Of a DNA stretch of 32,000 bases, positions 11,561 to 32,000 are shown piece by piece. Numbering within the stretch: the stretch's first letter is position 1; every line of letters starts with the position of its first letter. The DNA comes from Xylella taiwanensis. Lineage in GTDB: Bacteria; Pseudomonadota; Gammaproteobacteria; Xanthomonadales; Xanthomonadaceae. Under the pieces are notes generated by a model that had not been told where the DNA came from, did not search any database, and worked only from the letters and a program-made list of their open reading frames with translations. The stretch covers positions 2,100,001 through 2,132,000 of the forward strand of contig NZ_CP053627.1 in assembly GCF_013177435.1 (NCBI RefSeq), read 5' to 3'. Both the position numbers and the translations under genes were made by a program.

Positions 11561-14500
11561 ATGAAGACACTCAGCAGATACGCGCCGGCGTTGAACCATT
11601 TGACACTGGCACTGGCGTCAACACTGCTGCTGGTCGCCTATGCAGCCAACACAACGGCCGCCGAACCACAGCACCTCACGAACGCAGACAGCACGTCTGC
11701 ACCCCACGATAGCAAAGCCACCGATCTGGACCGCGTCGTCGTCACCGGCTCACGCATTCCACGCGCCGGCTTCGACACACTGGAACCAGCCACTGTCGTC
11801 AACCGGCAGTATCTTGAAGGTTTCGGCTTCACTAATGTTGCCGATGCGCTGTTCTCCCAGCCTGGCTTCGACAGAAGCGCCGAGGTGCGTGGTGATCAAG
11901 CAGGTTTCGGTGCCGGCGTCAGCTTCCTTGGCCGCTTCGGGCTCGGTTCCAACCGTCAACTCGTTCTGGTCAACGGACGCCGTTTGGTGACCTCTAATCC
12001 ACCGACCATCTTTGGCCCGGACGACGGCGGTACCCAAGTCGATCTGAATGTGATCCCGACCTCGTTGATCGAACGGACCGAAACCATCGGCGTCGGTGGC
12101 GCACCAACTTATGGCTCGGATGCCATCTCCGGGGTCACCAACCTGATTCTGAAAAAAAACTACGAAGGCGCAGAAGTCAAAATTGGCTATGGCCTGACCG
12201 AGCGTGGCGACAACGCGCGCTACACCTACTCGGCACTGCTGGGCAGCAACTTTGCCAATAGCCGGGGCAACCTGACCATTGCTCTGGACGCGGACGATAA
12301 CGCAGGCGTGCTTGGTTCCGCACGCCGCTATTACCGCAACAGCTACTCAATGCAACCCAATCCAAACGCCGCAGCCATCGCACAGTTTCAGCCTGGGCGC
12401 GACTCCGCGACCGACGGCCGGGTGCACACCACTATCCCGTTCGACACCAGTGCCACTGACGGCATCCCTGGCCGGGTACTCATCCGTGACCGCCGGCTTA
12501 ACAACACGACCTTGGGCGGCCTGCTTTTCCCCATCACTGACCGTTTCACCCGTAACGCCAGCGGGCAGCCACGCGGCTTCGGCCCGGGTCAGGATCAGTT
12601 CCTGCAATTCGACAAACAAGGCAACTTGGTCAGCTACAATCCGGGCGTCAATTTCGGTAACTACTCCTCCTCCGGAGGCGATGGGCTGGACCTCAATCAA
12701 ACAGTACAAGTGACCTCACAGTTAGACCGCAAGTCGGTGTTCATGCTCGGCAACTACGACATCACCGATAGCATCACCAGCTTCTTCGAGGGGTCATACT
12801 ACAGCTCAAAAGCACTCGAACTGACCGATCAGAGCATCTACAACGCCGTCGGTGGCGGAATCGGCAACGTTGACGGCAGCGGCGATCAAGACGGCACGCT
12901 GAACTTTAACATCGACAATCCGTTTCTCTCCGAGCAAAACCGGCAAGCGCTGCGCCGCTTGGGGATCACCGATTTCCAACTGTCACGCGCCTCACGCGAT
13001 CTGGTAATCGGAAACTCCAGCACCGACACCCGCCTATGGCGTGCGGTTGCCGGCCTCAACGGTCACTTCGACGCAAGCGGACACTTGTTCGACTGGGAAA
13101 CCAGCATCAACCATGGCGAAGGCAACTTCGACTATTACCGCACCGGCCTGATCCAGCAACATTTCATCAATGCCATCAACGTGATACGCAACAGTGCCGG
13201 CGAGATCGTTTGCAACCCAAGCGCGCCAGGCACCACCGCTGATCCGAACTGCGTGCCGCTCAACCTCTTTGGCGAGGGCGTCGCCTCACCAGCGGCACGC
13301 AATTACGTCACCACACCGACACACGCCACCGCACAGATGAAGCAGACCGTGTTCAATGCGAACCTGTCCGGCAGCCTCATTGACCTGCCTGGGGGCAAGC
13401 TCGGCTTCAACGTCGGCTACGAGCGCCGTAAGGAAGAAGGCCGTTTTACCCCGGACGAGTCTCAGCGTCTGGGTTTAGGCCGCACGGTGCCGACCACAGG
13501 CTCACGCGGCGCATTCACCACCAATGAGTACTTCGCCGAGATCCTAGCCCCACTGGTCAATCCAGAAGCGGGCCTCCCCGGTCTGCATCGCCTCGATCTG
13601 ACCGGCAAACTCCGCCGCGTCAACAACACCGTCAACGGGTGGTTCACTGCCTACACGTATGGTCTCCAATACGAACCGTTGCAGGGCATCCAACTGCGCG
13701 GCAACAAGACCCGCTCCTTCCGTGCGCCCGCCATCGTTGAGCTGTACACCAGTCAACAACCAAGCTACTCCTTCATCTCGGAACCCTGCACCCCGGCGGA
13801 TATCAACGCAGGTAAGCGCCCCGAGGTGCGGCAGCGCAACTGCCAAGCGTTTTTCGGTTACTACTCCAATGTCAATCCGTCAACTTTCGAAGCCGCACCA
13901 ACCAATCAACTCGGCTCAGTGAGCGGCAATCCCCACCTGGAAAACGAGCTCGCCAAATCTTGGACGGCCGGGATCGTATTCCAACCAGACTGGGCACGCG
14001 GTCTACGCATGGCCGCGGACTGGTACGACATCAAGCTCAGTAATGTGATCACCGTGTTATCGCCCGACGACATCACCTCCGGGTGCTTCGACAACGACAC
14101 GTTCAATACCAGCGATATACCCAACGCCAACCACTTCTGTAGCCTGATCACCCGCGATCCACGCACTGGCGTGGCCAGCAGTATCCGGAGGGAATATACC
14201 AACGGCCCGTACATTCACTTCCGCGGCTGGACCGCCGAGGTCAACTACCGCTTCGACCTGAGACATCTACGCTGGGGGGGCCTGCTTGACCTCAGCCTCA
14301 ACGGCTACTTCCCGAAGAACCTGAATTACGCAGCCACTCTGGACATCCCGCCTACCGAATCGGTCGGGACAATCGATCATTCCAAGCGTCAACTCCAATG
14401 GAATGCCCGCTACCTGACCGGCCCGTGGAATCTTGGCGTCAGCGCAAATTACAAAAGTGCTGCGGTGTACGACCTGACCAATACGGTGGAGACACGCGAT

Positions 14501-18296: not shown

Positions 18297-18716
18297 ATGT
18301 CTAACACCGCCACCCTCAACCTGGTCGAACGCCTTGATCGCTTACTGCCACAAACGCAGTGTGGCCAATGCGGCTTTAAAGGCTGCCTGCCGTACGCCGA
18401 AGCGATGGCACGCGGCGAAGCTGGCATCGACCGCTGTCCTCCCGGCGGTGACGCCGGTGCACGCGCACTCGCACACATCCTTGATGTGCCAGCGCGCCCC
18501 TACGATCGCAGCCGCGGCATCCAACAGCGACCACAGGTCGCCTGGATTGTCGAAGCGGACTGTATCGGGTGTACAAAATGCATCCAGGCATGTCCCGTCG
18601 ACGCAATCATCGGGGGGGCTAAGCACATGCATACGGTGATTGCTGCGCTTTGCACCGGCTGTGAATTGTGCGTGCCCGTTTGCCCAGTGGATTGCATCGA
18701 ACTACATCCCATCTAA
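18297..18716 (+). CDS. RnfB-like Fe-S protein / ferredoxin
   Basis: 139 aa. The N-terminal Cys cluster is [22 protein letters not shown], as in the RnfB Fe-S domain. Two classical 4Fe-4S motifs follow ([12 protein letters not shown] and [12 protein letters not shown]). Confidence 0.8.
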
Positions 18717-18740
18717 ACAGATCAACCTCAACAGCATTGA

Positions 18741-19440
18741 TTGGCAATAAACCCAACACCCGCAGCACGCTTGGAGGAGCGATTCAAAGAGGATCCAGCA
18801 TCCGAAAGCCACATCACTCTATGGATACCCCCCGTTCGACATGCCATGTGCATGAGCGTTCTGGACGCGACACAAACATTCGATCCGAAGACGGCCACGA
18901 CGCTCTGCATCTGCTCACTGATCGCAAGCCGGCTCGCTCACGGACAGACACACATGGAGGGGATCGATTGTCTACGTACACCCACCACGGTCACGCTGGA
19001 TGGTTTAGGGATCCAAGCTGCCTTGTAACGCAAGGTTCTATTCCGAAATCGCAAGCAAGATACGCACGCTAGGCAACGCTTCCTTGGCAGGTCATCGTAA
19101 AACTTCACATCATTCTCTCAGGTCTGGAAGAGACCAGCCGCCTTGCGCAACCGTTGCGCTTCATTCCGAACCCCTGTTACCGTCACCACGTCATCAATCC
19201 ATCATATGTGCAACAACGCCGAACAGATCGCTACATGATCAGTGCATAGTGGCCAGTATCTGTTTTTAAATCACATGGCTCATGACTGACCGAATCATTC
19301 ATTGCAGAACATGTGGTTGTGATTCACAGGTGCTTACTCCATGTACATCCAGCAGGCTCATTTCATGATGGTGAAGAGGATTCCGATGTCTGCGGTGACG
19401 CAGGCAATACATTCTTGATTGGAAAACAAGCCGCAAACCG
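18741..19440 (+). pseudogene. nth: Possible endonuclease III (nth) relic
   Basis: It lies immediately downstream of the RnfB-like gene, where nth sits in the E. coli rsx-nth operon. I see weak, collinear by-eye matches to Nth. PASESHITLWIPPVRHAMCMSVLDATQTFDPKTATTL aligns with PHPTTELNFSSPFELLIAVLLSAQATDVSVNKATAKL. VLFRNRKQDTHARQRFL aligns with GLYNSKAENIIKTCRIL. QVWKRPAA...TPVTVTTSSIHHMCNNAEQIA aligns with GVGRKTAN..PTIAVDTHIFRVCNRTQFA. HVVVIHR aligns with HWLILHG. Identity is low, stops and frameshifts are present, and one spacing is about 18 aa off. Confidence 0.4.
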
Positions 19441-20422
19441 TCTCCCTGATGGCCACCTCACCTATTGGATGCGCTGCCCACATAAGACGCATCAACGAAA
19501 CTTTAATTCACCCAGGACACAACAATTGCACAGTGGTGACCGCACCGGCCGAGAAGGACTCAGATAATGGCTGCGGCTGATACATCGCTCATAGCAGAAG
19601 CAGTGAGAAAACTTACTTGATTCAAGCCAAATCATGACAAGGCATCGTGCTGTCAGCTCACACAAATGAGCATCTTATTCATCAAAAACGCGAAACGAAT
19701 CTTAGTGGTAGTGAGCCAGAAACCAGTCTCCATCATAAATTTTTCTTACCTAACTGGCATACGGCAAGCAGATGTACTCATCTGTACGTATGAAAGACCT
19801 CACTGACGATGGTATCCACTGCCGACCGTATACATCTGGAAAATATGGACGGATGACAAGAGTGACATGATCGATGAGCTACACCGTGTTGTTGATGAAG
19901 GTAAGAAACTCTGACCTCGTTCAGATCACGCCCCGGTTCGAAAACGCCTCCAAGGACGCCATGAGTGGTATGTGCATCCTAATGGTGCGCATTACGCGAT
20001 AAGGCTGCGGCTGGAGTAAAAGACCTCCGACGTCTTTATTTACCAGCTCAAGCAAGTTCCGACGTAGCAAGCAGCGGCAAGGCTTAGAAACGACTCACTC
20101 ACACCGCATCTAGCATCGCTACGAACATGATCGAAGGAAGCCAAAGACAGTTAAGCGCTGCAAATAGTAGGCACGCTTACCAAGCGACTATCGGCTTAAA
20201 TCTTCATTGTTCCTGGCATCCTAAGTTGGACGCAAAGCAACGCCACACTGATGAACGGTCAAGCCAAATGACCGTGTGTAGCAAGGAGTTCAGACCATGT
20301 TGTTTCCCGGTGGCATCCTGAGGAACCATTGTGGCGCTTCGGCTCAATCTGCAATTTTCTCGGTCATGTTGTCCGGTGATTTCGTTAAGTGAGCAGCTAC
20401 CAACCATCCTTCGCCTATTGAA

Positions 20423-20806
20423 CTAGCGCTGCAAACGATCAATTGAAACCACGGTATCCATGGCTTGTTCTTCCTTGCGCAGGATCACCCCGTCAGCCGT
20501 GTCACGCCGTTGCAGCGACAGCTCAACTACATCAGCCTTCTTGGTCGTCAATTGACTAAAAGCAAGTCCAAGGAGGCGCTCCACAGCACGCGCGGCTAGT
20601 CCCAACACGGCAGGTAAAACATCAGCGCTGACAAGGCCCTGATCGACTAACAATTCCATCGTGCGCTTCAATAGCCGTGGCTTCTCCAGCATACGGTCGT
20701 GGTCGTTGGGTTCTTGGCGGCTTCCCCATTTGGCCGAGCGCAATTTAATCAGGCGCGAATAGTCATTGTCATCCATCATGCCGAACGCTTGAAGTTGCAT
20801 CTTCAT
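20423..20806 (-). CDS. Hypothetical protein (127 aa), possibly itself a remnant
   Basis: Uninterrupted ORF (MKMQLQAFGMMDDNDYSRLIKLRSAKWG...). It overlaps the 3' end of the methyltransferase-like relic by 38 nt in another frame. I recognise no family. Confidence 0.35.
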   Translation of the reverse strand: MKMQLQAFGMMDDNDYSRLIKLRSAKWGSRQEPNDHDRMLEKPRLLKRTMELLVDQGLVSADVLPAVLGLAARAVERLLGLAFSQLTTKKADVVELSLQRRDTADGVILRKEEQAMDTVVSIDRLQR

Positions 20807-21503
20807 GGCTGTTACCGAAACACCTCAGCTCTTCTTTCCTCGAAAAGAACACGCCTTGAAGTGAGATTGGCGATGCGACTGGAGCACTGAAACCGCGCGT
20901 AGGTCGCAAAAATGCACCAGCGAAGTGCTGTGCTTGCTGCTCCGTCAACATGTGAGTTGCTGCCTCGCCAGATACTTCTATGTATCGGTGCAGCACTAGA
21001 TGAGCAAGCGCGTCGCCATGTGCCGTAGCGCTTCCGTACAGTACACGCCGCTACGGCACATGGATCCGCAGCGGTGGCTAAGAGAGTTTGGTCTCCGCAA
21101 TACGTTGCACGCATGGATGGCTTTCAAAACCATACGCCGCCACCCCACCACTTTCAGCTTCGATGCGTGTGGCACCAGAACCTACGAAAAGATCAAGCAC
21201 TGTGCAGCCCTTGCCGCTGTATTCACTCATGACGGTCTCGACCCATTCTGAAGAGAAATCTACTGAGTAACGCAACTAGCGATAAACTGAGCACTGTATG
21301 TTGTCGGTAAAAGTGCCCAACCGGACAATGTGGAAAAGCTTGGTCTGGTGGGGAATGGATGAAACATCGAGTAGCAAAGGAAGCCCCGAGTGGGTGCGCA
21401 CAATGTAGGTAGTAGCGTTGCAAGCACCACAGCACCCACGACTTGCCACCACATGGCATGTGGGCAACGCACCAGGACACTCCAGCAACCAAGCGGCCTG
21501 CAC
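20769..21503 (-). pseudogene. SAM-dependent (DNA) methyltransferase-like gene inactivated by three in-frame TAG codons
   Basis: One continuous frame of 245 codons is interrupted only by TAG at 21276-21278, 21078-21080 and 21051-21053, with no frameshift. It contains a motif-I-like segment YSVDFSSEWVETVMSEYSGKGCTVLDLFVGSGATRIEAESGGVAAYGFE (compare hPaxFPxxL....VLDPFxGSGTT..A...G....G.E). Confidence 0.5.
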
Positions 21504-21552
21504 ACGCGGTCGGGTTGTGCGCTAGCAGGGCAGCGTACCGCAGCCAAGAATG

Positions 21553-21576
21553 AAAAAACCCCGCATCGCTGCGAGG
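21553..21576 (-). terminator. Intrinsic terminator, probably the ancestral tRNA-Asn terminator
   Basis: The minus-strand RNA reads CCUCGCA-gcga-UGCGGGG, a 7-bp stem with one G.U pair and a GNRA loop (21559-21576). It is followed by U6 (A6 on + at 21553-21558). It lies directly downstream of the displaced tRNA-Asn 3' fragment. Confidence 0.65.
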
Positions 21577-21599
21577 CCTGCTTTTAAGCTGTTTTACTC

Positions 21600-21645
21600 T
21601 GGCACCCGAAGTTGGACTGGAGCCAATACTCCCTGATTAACAGTC
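21600..21645 (-). repeat. Displaced, degenerate copy of the 3' half of tRNA-Asn (island attL-like end)
   Basis: tggcAcccgaagttggactGgaGccaaTACTccctgattaacagtc aligns with 27900-27946 of the intact tRNA. About 6 mismatches plus one 1-nt indel over 46-47 nt, same orientation. Confidence 0.8.
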
Positions 21646-21785
21646 GCCGCATTCAAAGCACATGAGGCGCCTGAAGTTAAGCCGTTTTTCTCCGTTAGCC
21701 TCGTCTAATACAAAACGAATGAGTCAGGCACAACACATTGATTTTCAATCTACCAGTCCGACCATATTAGACAGCCAATCGACGA

Positions 21786-21831
21786 CTGAAGTGGTTTGCA
21801 GAATTCGTAATCTTCCATGAGATACCTGGAA
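21786..21831 (+). repeat. 46-nt segment paralogous to 24395-24440 (fragment of a decayed ORF)
   Basis: ctgaagtggtttgcagaattcgtaatcttccatgagatacctggaa aligns with ctgaaacggtttgcagaattcgtgatctcccattagatacctggaa at 41/46 identity. It translates as EVVCRIRNLP*DTWN versus ETVCRIRDLPLDTWK. Weaker similarity continues about 35 nt upstream. Confidence 0.8.
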
Positions 21832-21906
21832 CGGCGGAAATTCGGGCTGATTCCACCGATCCGTCGTCTAACGCAGCATTGATGGAAATATTGTGTAATA
21901 CATTAG

Positions 21907-22191
21907 ATGATGCCGCTCACCTTCCGGATTGATCAGGCGCTGCAAGCCGAGTTTTCTATGACTGCGAAGGCGCCCATGACCGTACCGGCGCATAACTCCT
22001 GTGCGCATTCATCCGGGACTAGGTGAAACAACAGCAGGAAAGCACCGGAATATGATGCTTGGCTGTGCACTAAGGTCGAGCGGTCACGATCCTCCGCCAA
22101 CGCCGGTAACCTGGTGCCCACCGCCGCAGTTGATGCCAAATTCGCAGCTCGCCGAGCTGCGACACGTCGCCGGATTGAAGCGCTGCAGTAA
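21907..22191 (+). pseudogene. Ribbon-helix-helix antitoxin gene (ParE partner) interrupted by an in-frame stop
   Basis: ATG at 21907 gives MMPLTFRIDQALQAEFSMTAKA.., an RHH beta-strand. TGA at 22024-22026 is in the same frame. That frame then continues APEYDAWLCTKVERS....RRRIEALQ* and ends TAATG overlapping the parE start (22189-22191). No ATG/GTG/TTG follows the TGA before the CTG at 22063. The middle section reads better in another frame (LLCAFIRD*VKQQQE). Confidence 0.65.
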
Positions 22192-22472
22192 TGGAATTGT
22201 TTTGGACACTAGAGGCAATACAAGACCGCGACGACATTTACGACTGTATCGAGACCGACAACCCGACCACCACGCTAGCCTTCGATGAATTGTTAGAGGA
22301 AAAAGCGACGTTGTTGGTCAGGTACCCAGCTCTCAGACAGATTGGCAGAGTTCCAGATACACGTGAGTTCGTTGTACATCGGAATTACATCTTTATTTAT
22401 GGAGTAGTTGACGACTTGGTGCGCGTGCTGAACCTGGTACACATAGCTCGTCAGTGGCCGTCGATGAGTTGA
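22191..22472 (+). CDS. parE: RelE/ParE-family type II toxin
   Basis: 93 aa, uninterrupted. The pattern W..EA..D.D.IYDYI...NP..A......L......L...P..G R.....TREFVV.RNYI.IY......V.VL.LVH.AR.WP matches ParE. Its start overlaps the stop of the upstream antitoxin frame. Confidence 0.8.
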   Translation: MELFWTLEAIQDRDDIYDCIETDNPTTTLAFDELLEEKATLLVRYPALRQIGRVPDTREFVVHRNYIFIYGVVDDLVRVLNLVHIARQWPSMS

Positions 22473-22505
22473 GTAAGTAGAACAGATTAATCTTCCAAAG
22501 CGTAA

Positions 22506-22520
22506 GGGGCCAAAGGCCCC
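22506..22520. terminator. GC hairpin between convergent parE and lipase genes
   Basis: GGGGCC-aaa-GGCCCC is a perfect 6-bp stem. It lies 34 nt after the parE stop and 21 nt after the lipase stop. The T-tract is weak on both strands. Confidence 0.45.
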
Positions 22521-22540
22521 CTACACCCTCACTCAGAATA

Positions 22541-23791
22541 CTAACGTTGCTTATCAAGCAATTGGTGACGAACCGCAATGATGCAACTCTCCAGACTGGC
22601 CAAGTGCGCAACCAGACCATCGTTAGCATCTTTGTTTCTAGGCTTTCCTGCGTCAACGTCCAACACAGAGACCTGTTTACTACCACGTCTCTGGAAAGAG
22701 ATCATCGCAGCGACGGCATTCTGCAATGGAATAAGGGAATCATTGCTAGAACCGCACAGCAGGGTCGGAGCCTGTGGCGCCCAACGCAACAAATTGTTAC
22801 GTACTAGATCCAAACGAAATGGATTTCCCGGATTATAGAAATCTCTATAAAAACCAGGCTGGAAATACGTCTTGATCTGGTCAGGCTTAGGAAAGTCATC
22901 AAGTGTCAGCTTCTTATCACCAGGAAACCACACTTCAACCTCATCTGCCCAAGGCTCCTGAAAAACGTCTATGGGGGAGAAATAGATATTGTGGTAGGTA
23001 CGGTTCATGCCGATAATCAGAGCGGTGGCCAACGGGATAAGGTCAAGAGCGTCACTACGGCCATACCAACTATCAAGGATCGTTTGGCTAAGCGCATACG
23101 GCCCAGAAATCGGCGCACTCGCAACAAGCGAAAACTCATTTGACAGGTGTGCTTCAATCTCACGCTGGGTAGCCAGTGCACTATGGCCACCTTGCGAAAA
23201 GCCAGACGCCATCACTTTGTCCGACAGTGGCGTCTTTAAACCCCGCAGTACAGTACGAGCGGCACGCATCGCATCAATCGTAGCACTGGCCTCTGAAGAC
23301 GCCTGTAGATAAGCATGGAAGGGGTAGTCAGAGTTACCTAATCCAAGATAATCAACGCCAACAACCACATAGCCCTGGCTAGCTAAACGTGTGACCAATG
23401 GAGTATTGCCCTTAGCGTTAAAGATAGCCTTAGCCTGTCCAGCATGACGCAGCGCGCTGATCATCGGACCCCAAGAGAGCATAGGATAGGGAGCCGGGCA
23501 ATACGAACCATCTGGGATGAGCAGTACCCCCGACGCCGTCGTCGGTTCACCGGACACACCAACCGTTGCATAATTCAACTCAACAACATGAACGTCGCAT
23601 TTGGGTTGTTCGGACGCAGGCTCCTTGGTGAGAAAGGCAGCAATCTCATCTCTTTTATAGCTGGCAAGGAGATTGCTCTCAATCACCGTACCACGTTGAG
23701 GCCAAGCTGCTGCGACCACAGGAAAAACAACGCTAGTCATAATAAGCAGGCGAAGACCTGGAAGTATCGGTTTTTTTCTGAAATAAAGCAT
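22541..23791 (-). CDS. Secreted lipase/esterase (alpha/beta hydrolase, LIP / LipA-like)
   Basis: I place the start at the ATG at 23791 (MLYFRKKPILPGLRLLIMTSVVFPVVAAAW, a signal peptide). The ORF opens at 23863. The nucleophile elbow is MASGFSQGGHSAL. The size of about 416 aa fits Xanthomonad LipA-type esterases (my recollection). Confidence 0.7.
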   Translation of the reverse strand: MLYFRKKPILPGLRLLIMTSVVFPVVAAAWPQRGTVIESNLLASYKRDEIAAFLTKEPASEQPKCDVHVVELNYATVGVSGEPTTASGVLLIPDGSYCPAPYPMLSWGPMISALRHAGQAKAIFNAKGNTPLVTRLASQGYVVVGVDYLGLGNSDYPFHAYLQASSEASATIDAMRAARTVLRGLKTPLSDKVMASGFSQGGHSALATQREIEAHLSNEFSLVASAPISGPYALSQTILDSWYGRSDALDLIPLATALIIGMNRTYHNIYFSPIDVFQEPWADEVEVWFPGDKKLTLDDFPKPDQIKTYFQPGFYRDFYNPGNPFRLDLVRNNLLRWAPQAPTLLCGSSNDSLIPLQNAVAAMISFQRRGSKQVSVLDVDAGKPRNKDANDGLVAHLASLESCIIAVRHQLLDKQR

Positions 23792-24045
23792 GAGATTAGA
23801 CTCACTTGAACGAGTTATAATATTTATATGATCGCCAGCTAAATACCAAGACAATTGTCTCAAAAAATATTTTTTATATAAGAAAGAATTTATGCGATCA
23901 ATTCATATAATAAATTCTAAGCCATTATAAAGTATTACCTATAGAGAGATTTAACGTTATTTCTAAAAAATATTAATATTTTTTAATAATCTATCTATAT
24001 ATCAAATGAAATTATATAATCCACGCACTCAAATTAAGCCAGCAA
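23792..24045. promoter_or_regulatory. Extremely AT-rich upstream region of the lipase gene, with A6/T6 palindromes
   Basis: A 14-bp perfect palindrome AAAAAATATTTTTT lies at 23862-23875. A 20-bp perfect palindrome AAAAAATATTAATATTTTTT lies at 23965-23984. The surrounding ~200 bp is almost devoid of G/C, in sharp contrast to the rest of the window. Confidence 0.45.
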
Positions 24046-24070
24046 TATAGCCTCACGTTCTGAGGCTATA
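24046..24070. other. Perfect 10-bp stem hairpin at the edge of the AT-rich block
   Basis: TATAGCCTCA-cgttc-TGAGGCTATA. No clear U-tract follows on either strand, so the function is unassigned. Confidence 0.4.
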
Positions 24071-24156
24071 GACATCACTGCCGACATGACTCGTAGAAGA
24101 AAACAGTTGTGTCCACCGTAGCTCGGACCATTTACTCAAGACGTCGTTGAGGATAA

Positions 24157-24531
24157 CGTTTTGGTCAGCATCGAAGGCAAGGACAAAGCGCACATGCCAT
24201 CACTGAAGATGGTGACGGCAACACGTGGAGTTTTGAAGCCACTGGGGAATTGGCTAAGGACTTGGCTCACCACTTGTTCGGAAAGCCTGTTCGGCTAAAG
24301 GGCAGTGTCCGTTTGCCTAGAGATGCAGCAGGGTAATGGCAATACAGCAGTCTCAAAGCAGTTGAATTTCGACCGCTAAACAACGATACCTTGGCTGAAA
24401 CGGTTTGCAGAATTCGTGATCTCCCATTAGATACCTGGAAACAAGATATTGACCCCGTTGCAATGCTTAAATCGCTTCGCGATGAAGATTGCCTCCCACA
24501 TCGTTGCTCAGGTCAAAAACAGAATGATTAA
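24157..24531 (+). pseudogene. Decayed ORF of unknown family (paralogous fragment at 21786-21831)
   Basis: The frame reads ..AITEDGDGNTWSFEATGELAKDLAHHLFGKPVRLKGSVRLPRDAAG*WQYSSLKAVEFRPLNNDTLAETVCRIRDLPLDTWKQDIDPVAMLKSLRDED..*. An internal TAA lies at 24334-24336. Upstream text reads in another frame (NVLVSIEGKDKAH). There is no start codon. Confidence 0.45.
24395..24440 (+). repeat. 46-nt segment paralogous to 21786-21831
   Basis: See the feature at 21786-21831 (41/46 identical). Confidence 0.8.
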
Positions 24532-24929
24532 GGCTGCTTGGCTGGCTGTGGTGGCGGCTGCAATGCTTGAACCGGAACCTGAATGATGATTGGGGCAGAC
24601 TGAGTTGGCAACGCTTGAGAAGTGACCTTCACACTACTGGCAACGAAGCCGCCAACGCCAAGAATGCCTGCGAAAAGGGCTAATACCGTCGCGAGCATCC
24701 ATGTTCGATTTTCTTTTTGAGCCTTCTCGAAATCGGTGTGCAACTCCCCCACTGACTTGTCTAAATCGGCACGCAACTCCCCAACCGACTTGTTTAAATC
24801 AGCACGCAACTCCCCCACCGACTTGTTTAAATCAGCGCGCAAGCCTTCAAAATCGGCCTTGGTGGCAAGTGTGGGGATGATGGTTTCAAGTTGGACTATA
24901 CGTGCTTCCATACCGTCATCATGTGGCAA
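24528..24929 (-). CDS. Small coiled-coil, single-pass membrane protein with an internal 11-aa x3 repeat
   Basis: 133 aa. The N-terminal heptad-like region is MEARIVQLETIIPTLATKADFEGL, followed by (RADLNKSVGEL)x3. One TM helix follows (WMLATVLALFAGILGVGGFVASSV) and then a Pro/Gln-rich tail. It is on the same strand as the BrnA-like gene and 55 nt downstream of it. Confidence 0.6.
   Translation of the reverse strand: MPHDDGMEARIVQLETIIPTLATKADFEGLRADLNKSVGELRADLNKSVGELRADLDKSVGELHTDFEKAQKENRTWMLATVLALFAGILGVGGFVASSVKVTSQALPTQSAPIIIQVPVQALQPPPQPAKQP
24741..24839 (-). repeat. 3 x 33-bp perfect-phase tandem repeat inside the CDS
   Basis: The units are 24741-24773, 24774-24806 and 24807-24839 (caactcccccactgacttgtctaaatcggcacg and variants). 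They differ at a few positions, and a degenerate fourth unit follows. Each unit encodes 11 aa in frame. Confidence 0.9.
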
Positions 24930-24984
24930 ATCGCTGGCAACGTCCAGCGGGGTGAGGCAGTAAGGTGCAAGGAAACGGCGCTGT

Positions 24985-25275
24985 TCATTTTATAGGTGGA
25001 TCTCCGCTTGTTCCGCGTAGCGAAGCCGCATCGCTTTCGAGCAGCATCCGCACATAGCGCGTGTATGGCACACCTTTCGTTTTGGCCTTAGCTTTCAACG
25101 CTTCCAGTAGTTGGGTGGGTAATCGCATATTCAATACGGCTGTTTTGGGTTCGATCTCAAAGTGCATCGGCTTAAACCCGGAAAGATCATAGAGCAACAG
25201 GTCGGCCTTAGCGACGAATTCATCAGCCGCTACGTCGCTACGCAGCGATGGCATGGGCTTAGATTTGACCTTCAT
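24985..25275 (-). CDS. CopG/ribbon-helix-helix antitoxin (BrnA / CopG_antitoxin-like)
   Basis: 96 aa. ..PSLRSDVAADEFVAKADLLLYDLSGFKPMHFE..KTAVLNMRLPTQLLEALKAKAKTKGVPYTRYVRMLLE matches the pattern of antitoxins paired with DUF497/BrnT toxins. Its ATG overlaps the TGA of the upstream toxin remnant (ATGA at 25272-25275). Confidence 0.7.
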   Translation of the reverse strand: MKVKSKPMPSLRSDVAADEFVAKADLLLYDLSGFKPMHFEIEPKTAVLNMRLPTQLLEALKAKAKTKGVPYTRYVRMLLESDAASLRGTSGDPPIK

Positions 25276-25451
25276 ACATAATGATTAATCTCTTTCTGGT
25301 GCATATAACGGGGGCTGATAGGACGTCGCTTGATACGGCCTTCAGTCTCTTTAAGCATGAATACAAGGCATACGTAATGTCCTGCTGGGGGTTGTGAAAG
25401 GGAACCATCTGAAATTTCGGGACGCCTGTTACTGTTAAGACAGGCTAGAAG
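25272..25451 (-). pseudogene. N-terminally truncated BrnT (DUF497)-like toxin remnant
   Basis: The open frame covers only ~59 codons (..RPEISDGSLSQPPAGHYVCLVFMLKETEGRIKRRPISPRYMHQKEINHYV*). The C-terminus matches the DUF497 signature iRIISARkAtkkE...Y. An upstream in-frame TAA lies at 25452-25454. The only ATG would give 28 aa. The remnant abuts and overlaps the stop of the M20 peptidase gene. Confidence 0.6.
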
Positions 25452-26755
25452 TTATCGCTGAGATAACGGCTAATAAAAATAGCTGCTCTTTTGGTGACTA
25501 TGGGGAGAGCAGCTATCTCTAAAGTTTCATTTTTACTGTGCGCCCCAGTTCCCCACGGACCTAAACCATCAATGCTGGCAGAAACATCTTGTGCAATATA
25601 AGAAATATCCGCTCCTCCACGTTCAGCCGCTGGCGCTGCCTGCAATGGTTCTCCACCCAATGCCGTACTGATAGTGCTGAATTGGACTAAAAGTTGCTTG
25701 TTGGCATCAGTCTCCGGCATAACCGGGATGATATCTTTGAATATCAATTGACTGGAGGTGAGCGGTAATGGAGTCACCGTAATGTCACGCATCTTTTGTT
25801 CTGCGAGGCTTTTCTGTGCATTGGATAAAAAGCGCAAATCGCCATGCACTAATGTTTGTGCTGCAATAATGGTTTTCTGCCCGCTAGCATGACCGATACC
25901 TTGCTGTACATCTTCACTCACGGTCTGTCCACCAAGAATAATCCCTGGATTAAGGGTTAAACCGGACGTATCCGAAAGAGTGGTGCGAAACATATTCAGC
26001 ACCCGTGCAATTTCATAAATAGCACCAAAACCAGCACCAGACTCAAATATTGTGGATGAATGTCGTGATGTACCACTGCTGGAAAGATACCATTCACTTA
26101 ATCCTCTTCTATTGGTCACCAGCTGGTTGGTGGTCAGAGAGAACTCAAACCCCAGTGCAATATCACTGCCCTGAGCGGCTTCACGTAGTGTTTTACGCGA
26201 TATTTCGGTTGGCTTTGCCGCCTGCTCCTCATCGCCGGTAAGTACGACCGTGATATTGGCATTCTTTAGTTTATCTACCTGATCCAGCGCCTTGAGAGCA
26301 TATAAGAGCGTGACTATGCCACCTTTATCATCAATGACACCCGGCCCTGTTGCTGATTTTTTATCCGAGGAAAGCACGAACGACTGAAAAGGACTGTCAG
26401 CAGGAAAAACCGTATCTAGATGACCAATCAACAAGATCCGCTTCCCCACTCCGTGATGGGTAGCCACTAAACTGCCGGCATGTTTCATTGATGGAGGGAG
26501 GTCGACCCATTGTGTTTTGAAGCCCATACTTTCAAACTGTGGGCGAATCAGTTCACCAACTTTTTTGACACCCTCGTTGTTTGCTGTGCCGCTATTGATA
26601 TTGACCAGACGCTCTAATAACTCGAGTTGATTTTTTTTATTTTCATCAATGTGATTTATTAAAACGGTTTCATCTGGATTTAACGTTGCATTGGCAATAG
26701 GGATATCGTTGACACCTAATAAAACCAATATCAGAAAAAATATTCTTTCTTTCAT
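25445..26755 (-). CDS. Secreted/periplasmic M20-family metallopeptidase (carboxypeptidase G2-like)
   Basis: I place the start at the ATG at 26755 (GAGG 7 nt upstream; signal peptide MKERIFFLILVLLGVNDIPIANA). The ORF opens at 26785. The M20 motifs LLIGHLDTVFP, VIDDKGG and LTGDEEQ are present. GC content is visibly lower than in neighbouring core genes. Confidence 0.8.
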   Translation of the reverse strand: MKERIFFLILVLLGVNDIPIANATLNPDETVLINHIDENKKNQLELLERLVNINSGTANNEGVKKVGELIRPQFESMGFKTQWVDLPPSMKHAGSLVATHHGVGKRILLIGHLDTVFPADSPFQSFVLSSDKKSATGPGVIDDKGGIVTLLYALKALDQVDKLKNANITVVLTGDEEQAAKPTEISRKTLREAAQGSDIALGFEFSLTTNQLVTNRRGLSEWYLSSSGTSRHSSTIFESGAGFGAIYEIARVLNMFRTTLSDTSGLTLNPGIILGGQTVSEDVQQGIGHASGQKTIIAAQTLVHGDLRFLSNAQKSLAEQKMRDITVTPLPLTSSQLIFKDIIPVMPETDANKQLLVQFSTISTALGGEPLQAAPAAERGGADISYIAQDVSASIDGLGPWGTGAHSKNETLEIAALPIVTKRAAIFISRYLSDNF

Positions 26756-26937
26756 GTTTATCCTCATATAGCCGTTAACCTCCACGTTACAGGTACAGAC
26801 GGCCTAGGGCCTGCCCAACCCACATCCTGATCGCATTGAGCCCACGGTCGACCAACTTCTGCGGCCAGTATCGACCTTAGCATCATACGATCACCCAAAG
26901 TAGGCGGACCTGGAGCATCTCGATGATGTCCCCGATG

Positions 26938-27389
26938 CTATACCATGACCGAACTTCTTTTCACTGCGCGCTGAGCACGTGCCAACAGAGCGCCAAACGC
27001 CGCGCCGAGCAGATGCGCAACCCACGCCACGCTGCCAAAGTCGAGCACGCGTGCAGCAAACACCACCTGCAGAGCAATTAACTGGCGAACGCAGTGCAGT
27101 CATGCAGGAACAGCGCCAGCCAGCCCTCGTCGAGCGCAAATACGACGGCGCTGGCACCGATCACAGGCCAGTCGATCAGCACCACCGCCGCACCGTTGGT
27201 CAACTCGCCGGTACTATGGACGCAGGTCATGCTGATGGCACGTGCGATACACGGGCCGAACATCACCAGGCCGGTAAGATTGCCGGATAAATGTGCAATG
27301 CTGGTGTGGAGCAAGACCGTCATCATCGTGACGCAATCCCTAGTGCAATGGTCACCTTGAAATTTCCAGAAGTCGTGGTATTCGGCCAC
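26938..27389 (-). pseudogene. Rhomboid-family intramembrane serine protease, frameshifted and 5'-truncated
   Basis: Frame A reads ..LLHTSIAHLSGNLTGLVMFGP...VIGASAVVFAL.. (the H..HL..N motif and the GxSG region) and ends at 27078. Frame B reads ..FGSVAWVAHLLGAAFGALLARAQ..* (the catalytic-His AHxxG region) and ends with TAG at 26938-26940. At least one frameshift lies near 27078-27100. The N-terminal part is missing or degenerate. Confidence 0.6.
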
Positions 27390-27539
27390 ATATCCAGGAC
27401 AGGCGTGGCCAGATTTGGACTCACCAGCACCGCGACGGCGACAAGCAAGCGTAAATCCCTCGTCGTCGCCAGCGATTGAATCTGCCAGCCAGCGGACACA
27501 TTAGCGGTGACTGTTGACGTGATATTGATGTTCAGCATG

Positions 27540-27813
27540 GCTGCTGCAAGCATGTCATCACTCATGGCCACCAGCGCACCAAGAGACGGAACCGCCACTT
27601 TGGTAACCGTCGTTATTTGTCCACGATGCCAACGTACCCGTATCCGCAACAGACGCACTCGTAAGGCAGGGCTATCAGATGTGCGCCTGCATGACATGAG
27701 AGCCCAAGACGGGAAGGAAACGGGAAACGGTCGAAGAGGCATCGCAAGTATTAGGTCATTCCGATACACAAGTAATGCAGCGGCGCTACCGACGGAGGAT
27801 GACAACCCGGTGA
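27540..27813 (+). pseudogene. int: Tyrosine recombinase (phage/P4-type integrase) C-terminal stump
   Basis: ..RRTRKAGLSDVRLHDMRA (HxLR box) is followed, after a +1 frameshift near 27700, by KTGRKRETVEEASQVLGHSDTQVMQRRYRRRMTTR* (LGH...T..Y box with the catalytic Tyr). Only ~90 codons remain. It ends 86 nt from the tRNA-Asn 3' end. Confidence 0.7.
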
Positions 27814-27845
27814 TTATTAGACAACTCAGCGTTTATTAGACACGC

Positions 27846-27883
27846 GGAAAAACAACAAGGGCCTTCATCTCTGAAAACCCTTG
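27846..27883 (-). terminator. Possible terminator of tRNA-Asn (island-borne)
   Basis: The minus-strand RNA reads CAAGGG-(16-nt loop)-CCCUUG followed by UUGUUUUU. The loop is long, so the call is only moderately convincing. Confidence 0.4.
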
Positions 27884-27899
27884 CATTTAAAGCAATTCA

Positions 27900-27946
27900 T
27901 GGCGCCCGAAGTTGGACTCGAACCAACGACCCCCTGATTAACAGTC
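27900..27946 (-). repeat. tRNA-Asn 3' half = island attR-like end
   Basis: Direct repeat partner of 21600-21645. Confidence 0.8.
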
Positions 27947-27976
27947 AAGTGCTCTAACCGGCTGAGCTATTCGGGC
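27900..27976 (-). tRNA. tRNA-Asn (anticodon GUU)
   Basis: The reverse complement is GCCCGAAUAGCUCAGCCGGUUAGAGCACUUGACUGUUAAUCAGGGGGUCGUUGGUUCGAGUCCAACUUCGGGCGCCA. It folds by hand into a full cloverleaf: 7-bp acceptor stem, GCUC/GAGC D stem, CUGUUAA anticodon loop, GUUGG/CCAAC T stem and UUCGAGU T loop. CCA is encoded. Length 77 nt. Confidence 0.92.
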
Positions 27977-28080: not shown

Positions 28081-28497
28081 TTACCAGCACTCGGATAATT
28101 GGCCTTGACTATTCGTCTTGACTCCAGCCTGGTTGATAAAGAGGGTACCGCACTTATCGTCTTGCTGGGCTCCTTGTGGCACGGCACTGACAGTAAACGC
28201 AGAGAGGGTGGGATCGCCAACAAACTCTACACCATAAAAGGCAACCCCCTGGCGTGGGGATTGGGTAATCGGGTTGGTGGCAGGGAATCCAACATAAGTA
28301 TTGTTCACAGTACGGAAACGCTCCGCTAACTGGGCAATTTCTACCAAATCAGCCTTAGCCTGATCTCGATGCCCCTTGCGAATGTAATTCCGGTAGGACG
28401 GGTACGCAATGGCCGACAAGATAGCAATGATGGCAACCACAGCCATTAACTCGATCAGGTTAAATCCGTATGATCGATGCAGCGCACCCATCCGCAT
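28081..28497 (-). CDS. pilE: Type IV pilin-like protein PilE
   Basis: The prepilin leader and N-methylation site are ..[29 protein letters not shown], and a C-terminal Cys pair is present. I place the start at the ATG at 28497 (alternative 28491). The ORF opens at 28566 but would then overlap pilY1. It lies directly downstream of pilY1. Confidence 0.85.
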
Positions 28498-28532
28498 TGA
28501 CCTGCTGGCGCTCTCATCCTTTAGGATCACAA

Positions 28533-31500
28533 TCATCGCAACTGCCTCCACGATTGTCGTCCACATGCTCTGAGCACTGAAATGGACTTGGTTGGATCAT
28601 TTGGATCAATGATGACCTCGCTGCATCGGGTATCCACAGGCCCGGCAGGTTTCTCAGGCACCAAAGGACAATCATCTTCACCTGGATTGCAGAAAACCGG
28701 TTGCTTAGGCATCGGCCGGGTCACGGCAATACTCTGAATTGGAGCGTCGCCACCCGTCGAAACCGCACCGGTGTCACTATTACCAACGCTAGACCTGGAA
28801 CTACGAGACGGTACATTGACCTGACCAAGCGCAGCACCACCTGTAGTAGCATCTAATGCATAAAGCCAATTGCTACCGCCTGGAGCGCAGTTCACACTCA
28901 CCCCCGGCACGTAGGTTGAGAAGAAGACACGTCCACCCTGCAACAATGGCGCGGCAATGGAACGCTCACCCTGTGGATCCTGTCCCTGTACCACTAAATC
29001 GACATACCAACCACGCTTGGTCATATAACTCAGCTGGTTACGGGTCACAATGCGGGTATCTGGCGAGGTCGGGTTGTCGCTGGCCTGGATCATTTGAGCT
29101 GATAAGGCTGCACGCCCCGCAGTGACAGGGCTCCCGCTATCCCAGATGCCATACAACGTACTGAGGTCTTTGCTGCTGTTGTCACTGACAACAAAGTAGC
29201 GGCCACTGCCAAAATAGATCATATAACCAGCGTTCGGCCCCACCGCCACCTCCAGACCTCCCGTAATCGATTGGCGATAGCCTTTGGCATCACGGGCAAC
29301 AAATAGCGGCATTGGATTGTTCAACCCATCCTTGTAAGCGATACCCCAGTTTTCTGGATCTTTGCCCATGAGGTTGAACTTCCAAAGATTACCGTGCAAA
29401 TCAGCGCCGTACACCATATCGACCAACCCGTCGCCATCGGTATCCAACACCGCTAAATTGCCCAGACCGTTATATCCCATGTTCGCAGGATCAGTGCCAT
29501 CGGGATCAATCCCGTCACGCGCCTCAATCTTGCGGATAAGCTGGCCAGTAGCCAGATTCACGATGAAGAGCACCGCCCGGCCATTACTGCTGTTGTAACC
29601 GTTTCCGAAGATTGCCGCCCAACTGCCATCCTGTAACGGCACGATGTAGGGCTTGCCCATGGTGTACCCCATATCATCGTCATTCTGGCTGTTAATTTCC
29701 CACAACACATTCGACTCCGCGAAAGTGGTTGGGCTACTTACATCCAAGGCAAACATCGAACGGCCGCCAGCTCCAGTGCCAGCAACCAGCACAGTCTTCC
29801 AGCCTCCCCCCAAATAGGCATCGCTCAATGTCAATTTGCCATCAACATAGTAGCGATGTTGATAGTCCCGGTTAGCCAGGTAACCCAGTTGGTGAAGCAC
29901 ACTGTTGGGCACATACGCAAAACGTTCTGTCCCCTTATCGTCAAAGGCATGCAGCATGCCGTCGTTCGCACCAACAAAGATATGCTCAGCGGCCGTTGAG
30001 TCCCGGCGAGCCTTAATAAAAGCAGAGTAGCTGTCGCGCTGCACCTGCGGTAACCCACTCGCAGTGGCCCACCCATAATTCGCACGACGCGTCGCGACAA
30101 CAGGAATCGAATTAATAATGTCACCCAGCGGAGCGAAACGACGGCGGAACGGTGCGCTATTGAGTGTTACACCCTCCATGCTCTTATCACCACGCAAATA
30201 ATTCACTAATTGGTTGGGCGTGACAGAACTACCGAAGTCATCAATGACACCACGTGCTGTATACCCAAGGTGGCCGAAGACCTCTGCGGCATCAGTAGCT
30301 GCATCACCGCTACTACTCTGGACCAGCTTTTCGGCGACGAAAGGACGCACCACAGAGGAGCGGTTGGTTTCGTTTACATTGCTCAACGCCGTATAGATCA
30401 GACGCTTCGATATCCCATTGATACCACTCGGCACACCAGCGCTTGCCAACCACAGCACATCGCCTACCATGCCATTGGGATTGATCCGATAAGCAGTCAT
30501 CTCGCCCGTCCAATCTTTACCATCATTGGTGCTCGAGTAACTAGGGATCACTGCGAACGATGTACTAGAAACACTTGTCCCAACAACCGCAACCGAACCA
30601 CTGCTACCCGCCTGATTCTGGATGGCCGCAAACGCTTTAGCCACCTGCTTACGCAAATAGAGCGGATTGTTCACTGGAAAATAATCAGCCAGAGCACCAT
30701 TACTATCGAGGATGACGCCCTGATCATGACCATACTTGGCCGCATACCACAGTGGATCTTTTAACAACACCGCATTCGTGCCTTGAGAAGCAACAGCAAA
30801 TGTTCGCGTCGCAACAGGTGGCAAGCCATTACAATCCCCAGGCATCGGAATAGCATTGCAATAACCCGGTGGATGATCAGGAGGAGTATTTAGTTTGTAG
30901 GCTTGTTGTCCCGCACAGCTACTGCGCGTACCGTCATTACTGTGGCCATCAGCAAGATCGCACACTTCCAGGTACACACCGTCCTGTGTGGTCCCAGAGA
31001 TGACATAACCCATATGCTGGTCCATGGTACCAGCAGAATATTCAGTTTTGAGTGTCACCACGAGTTGATTCTTGGCATCGACGGAAATCGTGTAAAGCAC
31101 GATTACGTCCATGTCATGATCAGCGCCTTGTTCCACATCCTCGTAATTGATGCGGAACTCTGCATAGGGGCGGCCACCATTGACGGTTGCATCGTAGTCC
31201 ATCCCAGAGGAGCCGGCCATATTAGCGATACGCTGCACATAGAAATCGACGATCTGGTTGGTAGGCTGGAAATTACCAGTCGGAGAAATACCGGCACCAC
31301 GCACAGATTTGGCGAACGGTACTAGACTCACTCGACCATTGCCAACAGGAAATTCAAACTTCGGAAGCGGTGAGGCCAGTGCAACAGCATAGGTTCGTAC
31401 GAATTTGCTGCCGCCGATCTTGTGGTTGGCACCGTAGCGGGCAACCGCAGCCGAATAATAAGTGCCACGCTTGCTGGGTTCCTCAGGAGCTAACCCGCGC

Positions 31501-32000
31501 ACTGTGGATAAGTTGCTCACCACTTTCGGTGTTGGCGCATTATCGGAGTTGTTATTGGATTCGCCGATAAAAACCAGTTTGCTACCGCCACCCTCATCTG
31601 CCCAGATTCGATCAGCCTCTGCGGAAACGTCCAAATTGCGCAGCGAAGCAGGATCAGCCGATGCATTGAAATTGGACCAGCGCGAACCGGGCAACTTGTA
31701 ATCATAAGAGGGGTTGATATCGCTGAACACCGTCATTGTCGGCTGCGCACAGAGCGAATAACCGCCGCCTCCCTGATCGACAGACGTATACGGCGGCTTC
31801 CAACTGGGGTGCGAGAGCTGCAACGTGGCGATGTCCTGTGAACTGTCATTAATGTCGTACTCAATACGTGGCGCCGTCGCTCCTCCGAAGTAACGTAATG
31901 TTTCGTACATCATCTCAGCGATGGGATTGCCCCACATCCAACACTCGCCCTCACTCACGGGGCGCGTCGTGATCCATCCGCACCCATATGTATGGTTCTT
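28533..32000 (-). CDS. pilY1: Type IV pilus tip adhesin / biogenesis factor PilY1 (5' end outside window)
   Basis: The frame is open to the window edge: 14 stop-free codons lie upstream of the GTG at 31958. More than 1150 aa are visible. The C-terminal region is propeller-like ([33 protein letters not shown]) with an EF-hand-like site DTDGDGLVD (29418-29444). pilE follows. Confidence 0.9.

Follow-up and report, generated by a model that had tools for sequence, protein, structure and literature searches.

The 32,000-nucleotide stretch analysed here (the window), from the genome of the pear pathogen Xylella taiwanensis, contains a 6.3-kb segment beside a tRNA-Asn gene that most probably is a decayed prophage remnant inserted at this tRNA, a reading which we hold, from comparison with related sequences, at a probability of roughly 0.88. 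The segment lies between the intact tRNA-Asn and a displaced copy of its 3' part, which we interpret as the two attachment (att) sites of the element. An earlier note on this DNA had described an old, immobilised element in the 3' part of tRNA-Asn, which is supported by an empty site in Xylella fastidiosa. The note had also considered the layout non-standard, a view that did not hold: the layout is not unusual but that of a prophage remnant, and a lipase gene occupies the same position near the right attachment site (attR) in an X. fastidiosa prophage. The principal loci compared were those of X. fastidiosa GCA_028637085.1 (L083) and X. fastidiosa subsp. multiplex CP136975.1 (L086), a prophage locus in the genome of an uncultured Xylella sp. 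(L088), the two ends of the viral contig IMGVR_UViG_3300006051_000003 (L114 and L094) and the Xylella contig IMGVR_UViG_2585427635_000010 (L106). The ends of the element are marked by the following features.

27900..27976, minus strand: intact tRNA-Asn(GTT), in the role of the left attachment site (attL) (ARAGORN; Rfam, 71 bits)
27855..27884, minus strand: terminator hairpin just downstream of the intact tRNA, apparently supplied by the element (terminator scan; homologous to the L114 terminator)
27801..27838, minus strand: two copies of TGTCTAATAA, 19 nt apart, putative integrase arm-type sites (repeat family D7)
27663..27813, plus strand: tyrosine integrase stump (int-A), last ~50 codons with one frameshift (tblastn)
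21646..21838, no strand assigned: attR-proximal end of the element, collinear with L086 11864-12049 (77%) and with L106
21600..21645, minus strand: copy 2, the decayed and displaced bacterial 3' 47 nt of tRNA-Asn, serving as attR (blastn-short)
21506..21599, minus strand: ancestral downstream flank of tRNA-Asn with its terminator (alignment to L083 and L086, 70% identity)

ARAGORN and Rfam agree on tRNA-Asn(GTT) as the only tRNA gene in the window and place it on the minus strand at 27900-27976, as the earlier note had done. Its sequence is the same as that of the X. fastidiosa and Xanthomonas tRNA-Asn in alignment, and its 3' 47 nt (27900-27946) constitute the att core. In blastn-short searches of the window, copy 2 was the sole other significant match of the tRNA region, with 41/47 identical positions in the same orientation (five mismatches and one gap, E=1e-5), so that the earlier count of about six mismatches and one indel was essentially right. 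Copy 2 extends exactly from the CCA end into the anticodon stem (tRNA positions 31-77), shares its end-point with the perfect att copies of L086 and L094, and is followed by a terminator-like hairpin on the minus strand (21579-21556) in a terminator scan, again as had been described.

The earlier note had also raised the possibility that copy 2 belongs to a separate degenerate tRNA gene. An anchored alignment of the next 30 nt, where a 5' half would lie, scored below the background median, with 97% of random window positions scoring as high, and an Rfam covariance-model search for tRNAs in 20100-21750 gave no match at E<=10. Because copy 2 thus lacks a recognisable 5' half and a covariance-model match, it is a partial tRNA copy and not a second decayed tRNA gene. 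The idea that it is the relic of a second, tandem tRNA-Asn, with the intervening DNA being ancestral and later deleted in X. fastidiosa, is close to refuted, although such tandem genes are common in bacteria and a further, more decayed copy of the tRNA 3' end to the left (copy 3, see below) is faintly similar beyond the anticodon stem (p about 0.07). In addition to the abrupt end of copy 2 at the att boundary and its missing 5' half, the flank following it corresponds to the flank of the single intact X. fastidiosa tRNA, and Xanthomonas likewise has one tRNA-Asn at this position.

Related genomes provide the site in its empty form. In L083, the gene order is pilY1, pilE, tRNA-Asn, ~6 kb of small genes, rnfB and metG, and the intact tRNA-Asn runs directly into a homologue of window positions 21506-21599, terminator hairpin included. 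Window positions 21506-21645, which comprise copy 2 and 94 nt on its left side, accordingly align to the 3' half of the L083 tRNA plus its immediate downstream sequence, which is the contiguity of tRNA-Asn, terminator and flank that the earlier note had predicted and had set as a test beforehand. That note had also asked whether relatives of identical gene order lack any repeat, and no such case was encountered. Xanthomonas axonopodis has no insert at this place: downstream of pilE and tRNA-Asn come a terminator, a fimT-like gene and then uvrB, and the location of the tRNA behind pilE is therefore ancestral.

L086 represents the occupied form. Here, genes for distal-tail, baseplate, sheath-initiator, wedge and tail-fibre proteins and a SocA-like gene precede an orthologue of the island lipase, which is followed by an att copy and then by small genes as in L083, rnfB and metG. 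This att copy (12050-12096) matches the tRNA-Asn 3' end at 47/47 positions while the preceding three bases differ from the tRNA, and no tRNA gene was found in the L086 locus by ARAGORN. The host flank beyond it is identical to the flank of the empty L083 site (93/93 nt). Across attR, the window and L086 share 75.6% DNA identity in the lipase and its upstream region, 77% in the phage-side segment and 70% in the host flank; by comparison, metG and pilY1 show ~86% DNA identity between the window and X. fastidiosa. As a protein, the pilY1 fragment in the window is 100% identical to an X. taiwanensis sequence and 87% identical to the X. fastidiosa counterpart. Judged from these sequences, the Xylella tRNA-Asn site is known in three states: empty, freshly occupied and, in X. 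taiwanensis, fossil.

The presence of tail genes, lipase, a perfect att copy and the same flank at the homologous L086 site identifies the island as a prophage remnant. This homology continues into the island, where window positions 22526-23915 are collinear with the L086 lipase and its upstream region, 24120-24489 match the interior of the L088 prophage, and 24393-24540 match the L086 segment beside attR. A non-phage genomic island, for example an integrative mobilisable element that shares the integrase type and att site with phages, would also suit the lipase, peptidase and toxin-antitoxin cargo, and the loss of all structural phage genes agrees with it. We nevertheless consider such an island improbable, as the 1.9 kb adjoining attR, lipase gene included, are homologous to an X. 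fastidiosa element end near tail, baseplate and tail-fibre genes, non-coding DNA further inside matches another Xylella prophage, and the att arm at the opposite end is homologous to that of a 37-kb viral contig.

A prophage origin is further supported by the remains of an integrase next to the intact tRNA. On the plus strand at 27663-27813, the stump reads KAGLSDVRLHDMRA, then, after a frameshift, KTGRKRETVEEASQVLGHSDTQVMQRRYRRR and a stop codon; it retains the HD(M)R and LGHSD...Y motifs and ends 86 nt from tRNA-Asn. The stump at this distance reported in the earlier note is thus real, if short and split over two reading frames. An IMG/VR scan found the exact 47-nt core in 32 loci, and integrases from loci carrying it served as queries. 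Two viral contigs of ~37 kb bear the core at both ends in the same orientation, and the core lies outside any called tRNA gene in all seven such loci scanned (7/7). In tblastn searches, the stump matched the extreme C-termini of integrases from seven IMG/VR loci on six contigs (E 1e-9 to 1e-6), while no integrase similarity was detected upstream of 27663. Searches of the stump as DNA and as peptide against the phage collection returned tRNA matches only, or none. Two candidates were rejected: a by-eye match of 27250-27340 to the Arg-212 region of lambda Int was supported by no search and was dropped, and the integrase-like open reading frame (ORF) of L106 had no match in the window.

The complete arrangement of this end is seen in L114, where tRNA-Asn is followed by a terminator and an inward-pointing 330-amino-acid (aa) integrase, whose stop codon lies at a distance of 65 nt from the tRNA; over its last ~45 residues, the enzyme matches the window stump. 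The alignment of window positions 27660-27976 with the L114 attL arm continues beyond the tRNA and includes a common terminator loop, CAGAGATG, and a doubled TGTC(C/T)AATA motif, for which L114 bears the corresponding doublet TGTCCAATAC at the same spacing and position. These motifs are putative arm-type integrase binding sites in the attP arm. At the other end of the same contig (L094), the 47-nt core begins at the same start nucleotide and continues into a different terminator. Closely related integrases with the same core also occur in opposite geometry, lying beside the distal att copy in the IMG/VR locus L122 and beside the tRNA, in antisense orientation, in L114 (43-1177).

Several observations weigh against a prophage origin. 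Neither Pfam, PHROGs, tblastx nor a six-frame scan detected a phage structural gene in 21646-27899, and the inferred origin therefore rests on the homology of the ends and of the debris; the absence of virion genes is the expected state of a remnant. The recognisable integrase is limited to ~50 codons, and its stitched translations gave no match, either in Pfam or PDB (191 aa) or among 5.8 billion proteins (75 aa). The comparison with L086 covers its attR end, and some of the integrases that match the stump occur in another geometry, as in L122, where the integrase is found beside the other, distal att copy (13096-14349, tRNA sense). Finally, the 877 nt at 26786-27662, between the peptidase gene and the stump, are unexplained: no homologue was found by Pfam, PDB, protein database or tblastn searches, and only overlapping ORFs of ~88-160 aa without a family match are present.

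We propose that, in an X. taiwanensis ancestor, the tRNA-Asn gene just downstream of pilE recombined with the attachment site (attP) of a temperate phage that encoded a lambda-type tyrosine integrase. attP would have contained the tRNA-Asn sequence between anticodon stem and CCA (47 nt). On the model of tyrosine-integrase phages that target the anticodon-loop region of tRNA genes, a presumed crossover would have inserted the phage DNA within the gene and separated its 5' part from the original 3' part, while the phage copy completed the tRNA and brought a terminator with it. Displaced in this way, the original 3' 47 nt would have come to lie, along with the terminator and flank behind them, at the distal end of the element (21600-21645 and further left). 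A prophage of roughly 37-43 kb would later have lost most of its DNA by deletion to leave 6.3 kb, consisting of the last 50 codons of the integrase, non-coding debris, the lipase, an M20 peptidase, a repeat protein and toxin-antitoxin leftovers; selection for the cargo may explain which genes survived. With a truncated integrase and att copies that differ at 6/47 positions, the element is predicted to be unable to excise.

X. taiwanensis, X. fastidiosa and Xanthomonas have the same tRNA sequence, and the six positions at which copy 2 differs therefore changed after its displacement. This amounts to a divergence of 13% along one lineage, compared with 30% between species in the neutral flank, or roughly 15% per lineage, and suggests, from a very small sample of 47 nt, an insertion about as old as the split between X. 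taiwanensis and X. fastidiosa. A related scenario, which concerns the timing and not the nature of the element, is that the insertion predates the split of the two species, the attR junctions of the window and L086 then being orthologous, and that empty X. fastidiosa strains arose via precise excision. It agrees with the collinearity of the window and L086 on either side of attR (77% in the phage segment, 70% in the host flank) and with a copy 2 divergence (6/47, 13%) near half of the 30% flank divergence. We consider it rather unlikely, as the 47/47 att copy and the 93/93 identity of the L086 flank with that of the empty strain point to a recent insertion in X. fastidiosa, and as the lower DNA identity of the lipase region (75.6%) than of metG and pilY1 (~86%) suggests phage lineages that split earlier than the hosts or evolve faster.

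The interior of the prophage remnant contains the following features.

22191..22472, plus strand: ParE/RelE-family toxin ORF, apparently intact (Pfam ParE_toxin, E=2e-10)
22541..23791, minus strand: LipA/LesA-family lipase/esterase, predicted to be secreted, intact, the cargo gene nearest attR (PDB; Pfam LIP/alpha-beta hydrolase)
23815..24014, no strand assigned: A+T-rich block upstream of the lipase gene, G+C content (GC) 0.19 (composition)
24120..24540, no strand assigned: non-coding phage-derived debris (matches to L088 and L086)
24528..24911, minus strand: 127-aa protein with three repeats of 11 residues, hydrophobic in a C-terminal stretch (repeat family D1)
24985..25275, minus strand: orphan BrnA/CopG-family antitoxin (Pfam CopG_antitoxin, E=4.5e-25)
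25445..26755, minus strand: M20 metallopeptidase, carboxypeptidase G2-like, with a signal-peptide-like N-terminus, intact (Pfam PF01546 and PF07687)
26786..27662, no strand assigned: G+C-rich stretch, GC 0.575 (no matches)

These assignments, made with Pfam and the repeat family, bear out the cargo list of the earlier note (lipase, M20 peptidase, repeat protein, toxin-antitoxin genes), and the annotation of X. taiwanensis PLS229 includes all island proteins within the accession range AXI84083 to AXI84087, with AXI84087 for the M20 peptidase and, judging by the neighbouring numbers, probably AXI84084 for the lipase. The lower and heterogeneous composition noted before is also evident from GC and k-mer profiles, with a GC of 0.489 in the island compared with 0.559 and 0.525 in the left and right flanks, respectively, and the highest tetranucleotide distance from the core at 22-27 kb. 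The ~200-bp block upstream of the lipase gene is indeed A+T-rich; at 81-84% A+T, its description as almost pure A/T was somewhat overstated.

Residues 31-416 of the island lipase align to PDB 3H2G/3H2H (E=1e-148), which are listed as 'esterase' and which we take to be the LipA esterase of Xanthomonas oryzae, and its translation contains the nucleophile motif GFSQG. By this full-length 3H2G alignment, the island lipase belongs to the same family as LipA of Xanthomonas oryzae and LesA, PD1702 and PD1211 of X. fastidiosa, with secretion and activity predicted. Nearly all Xylella strains carry three copies of the LipA/LesA family and one strain carries two, and LesA is required for Pierce's disease (PMC5700972, PMC4709584). 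The word 'phage' is absent from the main text of both papers on the LesA family (PMC4709584, PMC5700972). A proposed identity of the lipase at this site with PD1211/XF2151 beside prophage xfp6 of X. fastidiosa was unsupported and dropped; the genes listed for xfp6 are XF0480 to XF0535.

Homologues of the island lipase are encoded at the attR end of the prophage in X. fastidiosa subsp. multiplex CP136975.1 (68% aa identity) and at a prophage edge near portal, terminase and baseplate genes in the uncultured Xylella sp. (L088, 73%). The gene is thus found at a prophage edge in three Xylella lineages (X. taiwanensis, X. fastidiosa subsp. multiplex and the uncultured Xylella sp.), and adjoins a tRNA-Asn att site in two of the three. 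We tentatively propose, on a balance slightly short of even, that this branch of the LipA/LesA family spreads as phage cargo and that in X. taiwanensis the lipase has outlived its phage along with a peptidase of enterobacterial affinity, with tRNA-Asn as a reused landing pad for at least two generations of elements. In that case, the enzymes that these xylem pathogens secrete would owe part of their make-up to lysogenic conversion. If phages carry the lipase paralogue, some of the secreted virulence factors of Xylella would move horizontally, which is relevant to comparisons of host range between X. taiwanensis and the subspecies of X. fastidiosa.

A 46-nt direct repeat (21786-21831 and 24395-24440, 89% identical; family D3) brackets the lipase and ParE genes. 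The same segment occurs once in L086, downstream of the lipase, and from this difference the lipase-ParE module of X. taiwanensis looks to have been inserted or rearranged by recombination at the 46-nt segment. No intact antitoxin was found upstream of ParE, where the sequence resembles, by eye, a frameshifted antitoxin gene; stitched translations of this candidate had no Pfam match. The BrnA antitoxin locus leaves no space for a BrnT partner. The 127-aa protein gave weak matches to PHROG families of unknown function only, and three tandem 33-nt units in its gene (24723-24842, 80-83% identical) encode (A)DLNKSVGELR.

Both the catalytic and the dimerisation domain of the M20 peptidase are recognised by Pfam, and the protein aligns to PDB 1CG2 (E=1.6e-21). 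Among 1.84 billion cluster representatives, its nearest relative is a Serratia marcescens/ureilytica protein (67%), followed by proteins with <=47% identity. This affinity, together with the low GC of the gene (0.448), points to acquisition from outside the Xanthomonadaceae and suggests a transfer between Enterobacterales and Xylella that was possibly carried by a phage.

The earlier note had bounded the element by tRNA-Asn and copy 2. The picture extends further left, where the window contains a third tRNA copy, a second integrase relic and phage fragments.

20264..21505, no strand assigned: older mobile-DNA debris between copies 2 and 3 (Pfam, PHROG)
21096..21269, minus strand: C-terminal fragment of a DNA methyltransferase, 58 residues (Pfam N6_N4_Mtase, E=7e-4, six-frame scan)
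20423..20806, minus strand: phage-type regulator truncated to its C-terminal quarter (PHROG 2439, positions 275-364 of 367)
20214..20263, minus strand: copy 3, a more decayed direct copy of the tRNA-Asn 3' end (ungapped alignment)
19696..20117, plus strand: int-B, a second, heavily decayed integrase relic (tblastn, weak evidence)

Copy 3 has an ungapped identity of 39/50 with the tRNA, compared with 27/50 for the best position elsewhere in the window (the tRNA and copy 2 aside); a reading as a full pseudo-tRNA was rejected, as its 5' extension was not significant (p about 0.07) and Rfam gave no match. int-B was recognised in tblastn searches by two collinear matches to the integrase of L122 (residues 166-310, E=6e-5), a score beaten by 0/150 shuffles, and was matched by three further integrases. 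It points at copy 3 in the same geometry in which int-A points toward the tRNA. The methyltransferase fragment was the only hit in a six-frame Pfam scan of 18750-21650 and 26780-27900, and window positions 20849-21003 align to L083 20748-20894. Copy 3, int-B and the phage fragments between the copies together suggest serial insertion at tRNA-Asn, with at least one earlier element probably having occupied the site; each newcomer would displace the previous tRNA end plus the older element behind it. As to the order of events, no integrase relic was found beside copy 2, and copy 3 is not present in X. fastidiosa. In L106, an integrase gene abuts the att copy and the far side is homologous to the attR-proximal end of the element in the window, as would be expected of tandem prophages; tRNA-Asn in this other Xylella genome thus seems to have received two different phages. 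The integrase C-terminus beside the 47-nt att copy of L106 (193-885) is of a different type (HGLKHRG...).

In a search of 80 Lysobacterales genomes, none of the 51 loci scanned had a tRNA-Asn within 10 kb of rnfB, and the adjacency of the two therefore appears to be specific to Xylella. Together with the fimT-like gene and uvrB after tRNA-Asn in Xanthomonas, this places a rearrangement breakpoint of the Xylella lineage within the mobile-DNA tract downstream of tRNA-Asn (18716-21505). At the left edge of this tract, a 134-aa ORF (18668-19072) overlaps the end of an rnfB-like gene, has no Pfam or PHROG match and shares only its first ~200 nt with X. fastidiosa; it is probably not a gene. The right flank of the tRNA encodes a pilE-like minor pilin with a ComP_DUS domain (28081-28566) and pilY1 (28533-31958), which ends at the window edge with 1141 of its 1521 residues inside. 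The ATG-to-stop ORF of the pilin has no exact protein record, and its annotated start probably differs.

It is textbook knowledge that phages and islands integrate into tRNA genes, and the mechanism itself adds nothing new, the Xylella cases having been catalogued in 2008. The genome paper of X. taiwanensis does not mention phages, islands or lipases, and the remnant therefore appears to be undescribed so far. As a clean worked example, the locus shows which genes outlast their phage, and since a single genus offers the same att site in an empty, a freshly occupied and a fossil state, the decay can be roughly dated. A mildly new thread is limited to the LesA-family lipase travelling at the edge of Xylella prophages; the surviving gene belongs to a family whose founding member is required for Pierce's disease.

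Among known systems, the xfp6 prophage and the phage remnants of X. fastidiosa are the nearest described relatives in setting, as they share with the window element the genus, the target tRNA, tyrosine integrases and tRNA-Asn fragments. xfp6 of strain 9a5c is associated with tRNA-Asn, reconstitution of the tRNA after insertion and tRNA-Asn fragments have been reported, and integrases form a decay series from the full-length gene over a frameshifted gene to fragments of <150 residues in remnants (Varani et al., 2008; PMC2605562). In contrast to the X. taiwanensis element, xfp6 is a 9a5c element that includes XF0480 to XF0535 and may be of another phage lineage. The L086 prophage has the same insertion point, the same 47-nt core and the same order of lipase, non-coding segment, attR and host flank at 70-77% DNA identity. 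It differs in keeping tail and baseplate genes and a perfect att copy; the 10 kb examined encode neither an M20 peptidase nor BrnA or ParE. A further difference is the 46-nt segment that the window has in duplicate, one copy on each side of the lipase gene. IMGVR_UViG_3300006051_000003 resembles the opposite end of the remnant in its homologous att arm, doubled motif, integrase C-terminus and order of tRNA, terminator and integrase, but is an intact 37-kb metagenomic element with a 330-aa integrase, of which the last ~45 residues are comparable. Williams is said to have described, in 2002, integration by tyrosine integrases at an anticodon-loop sublocation of tRNA genes, and the identity block in the window likewise spans the anticodon stem-loop to the tRNA 3' end, with the gene restored.

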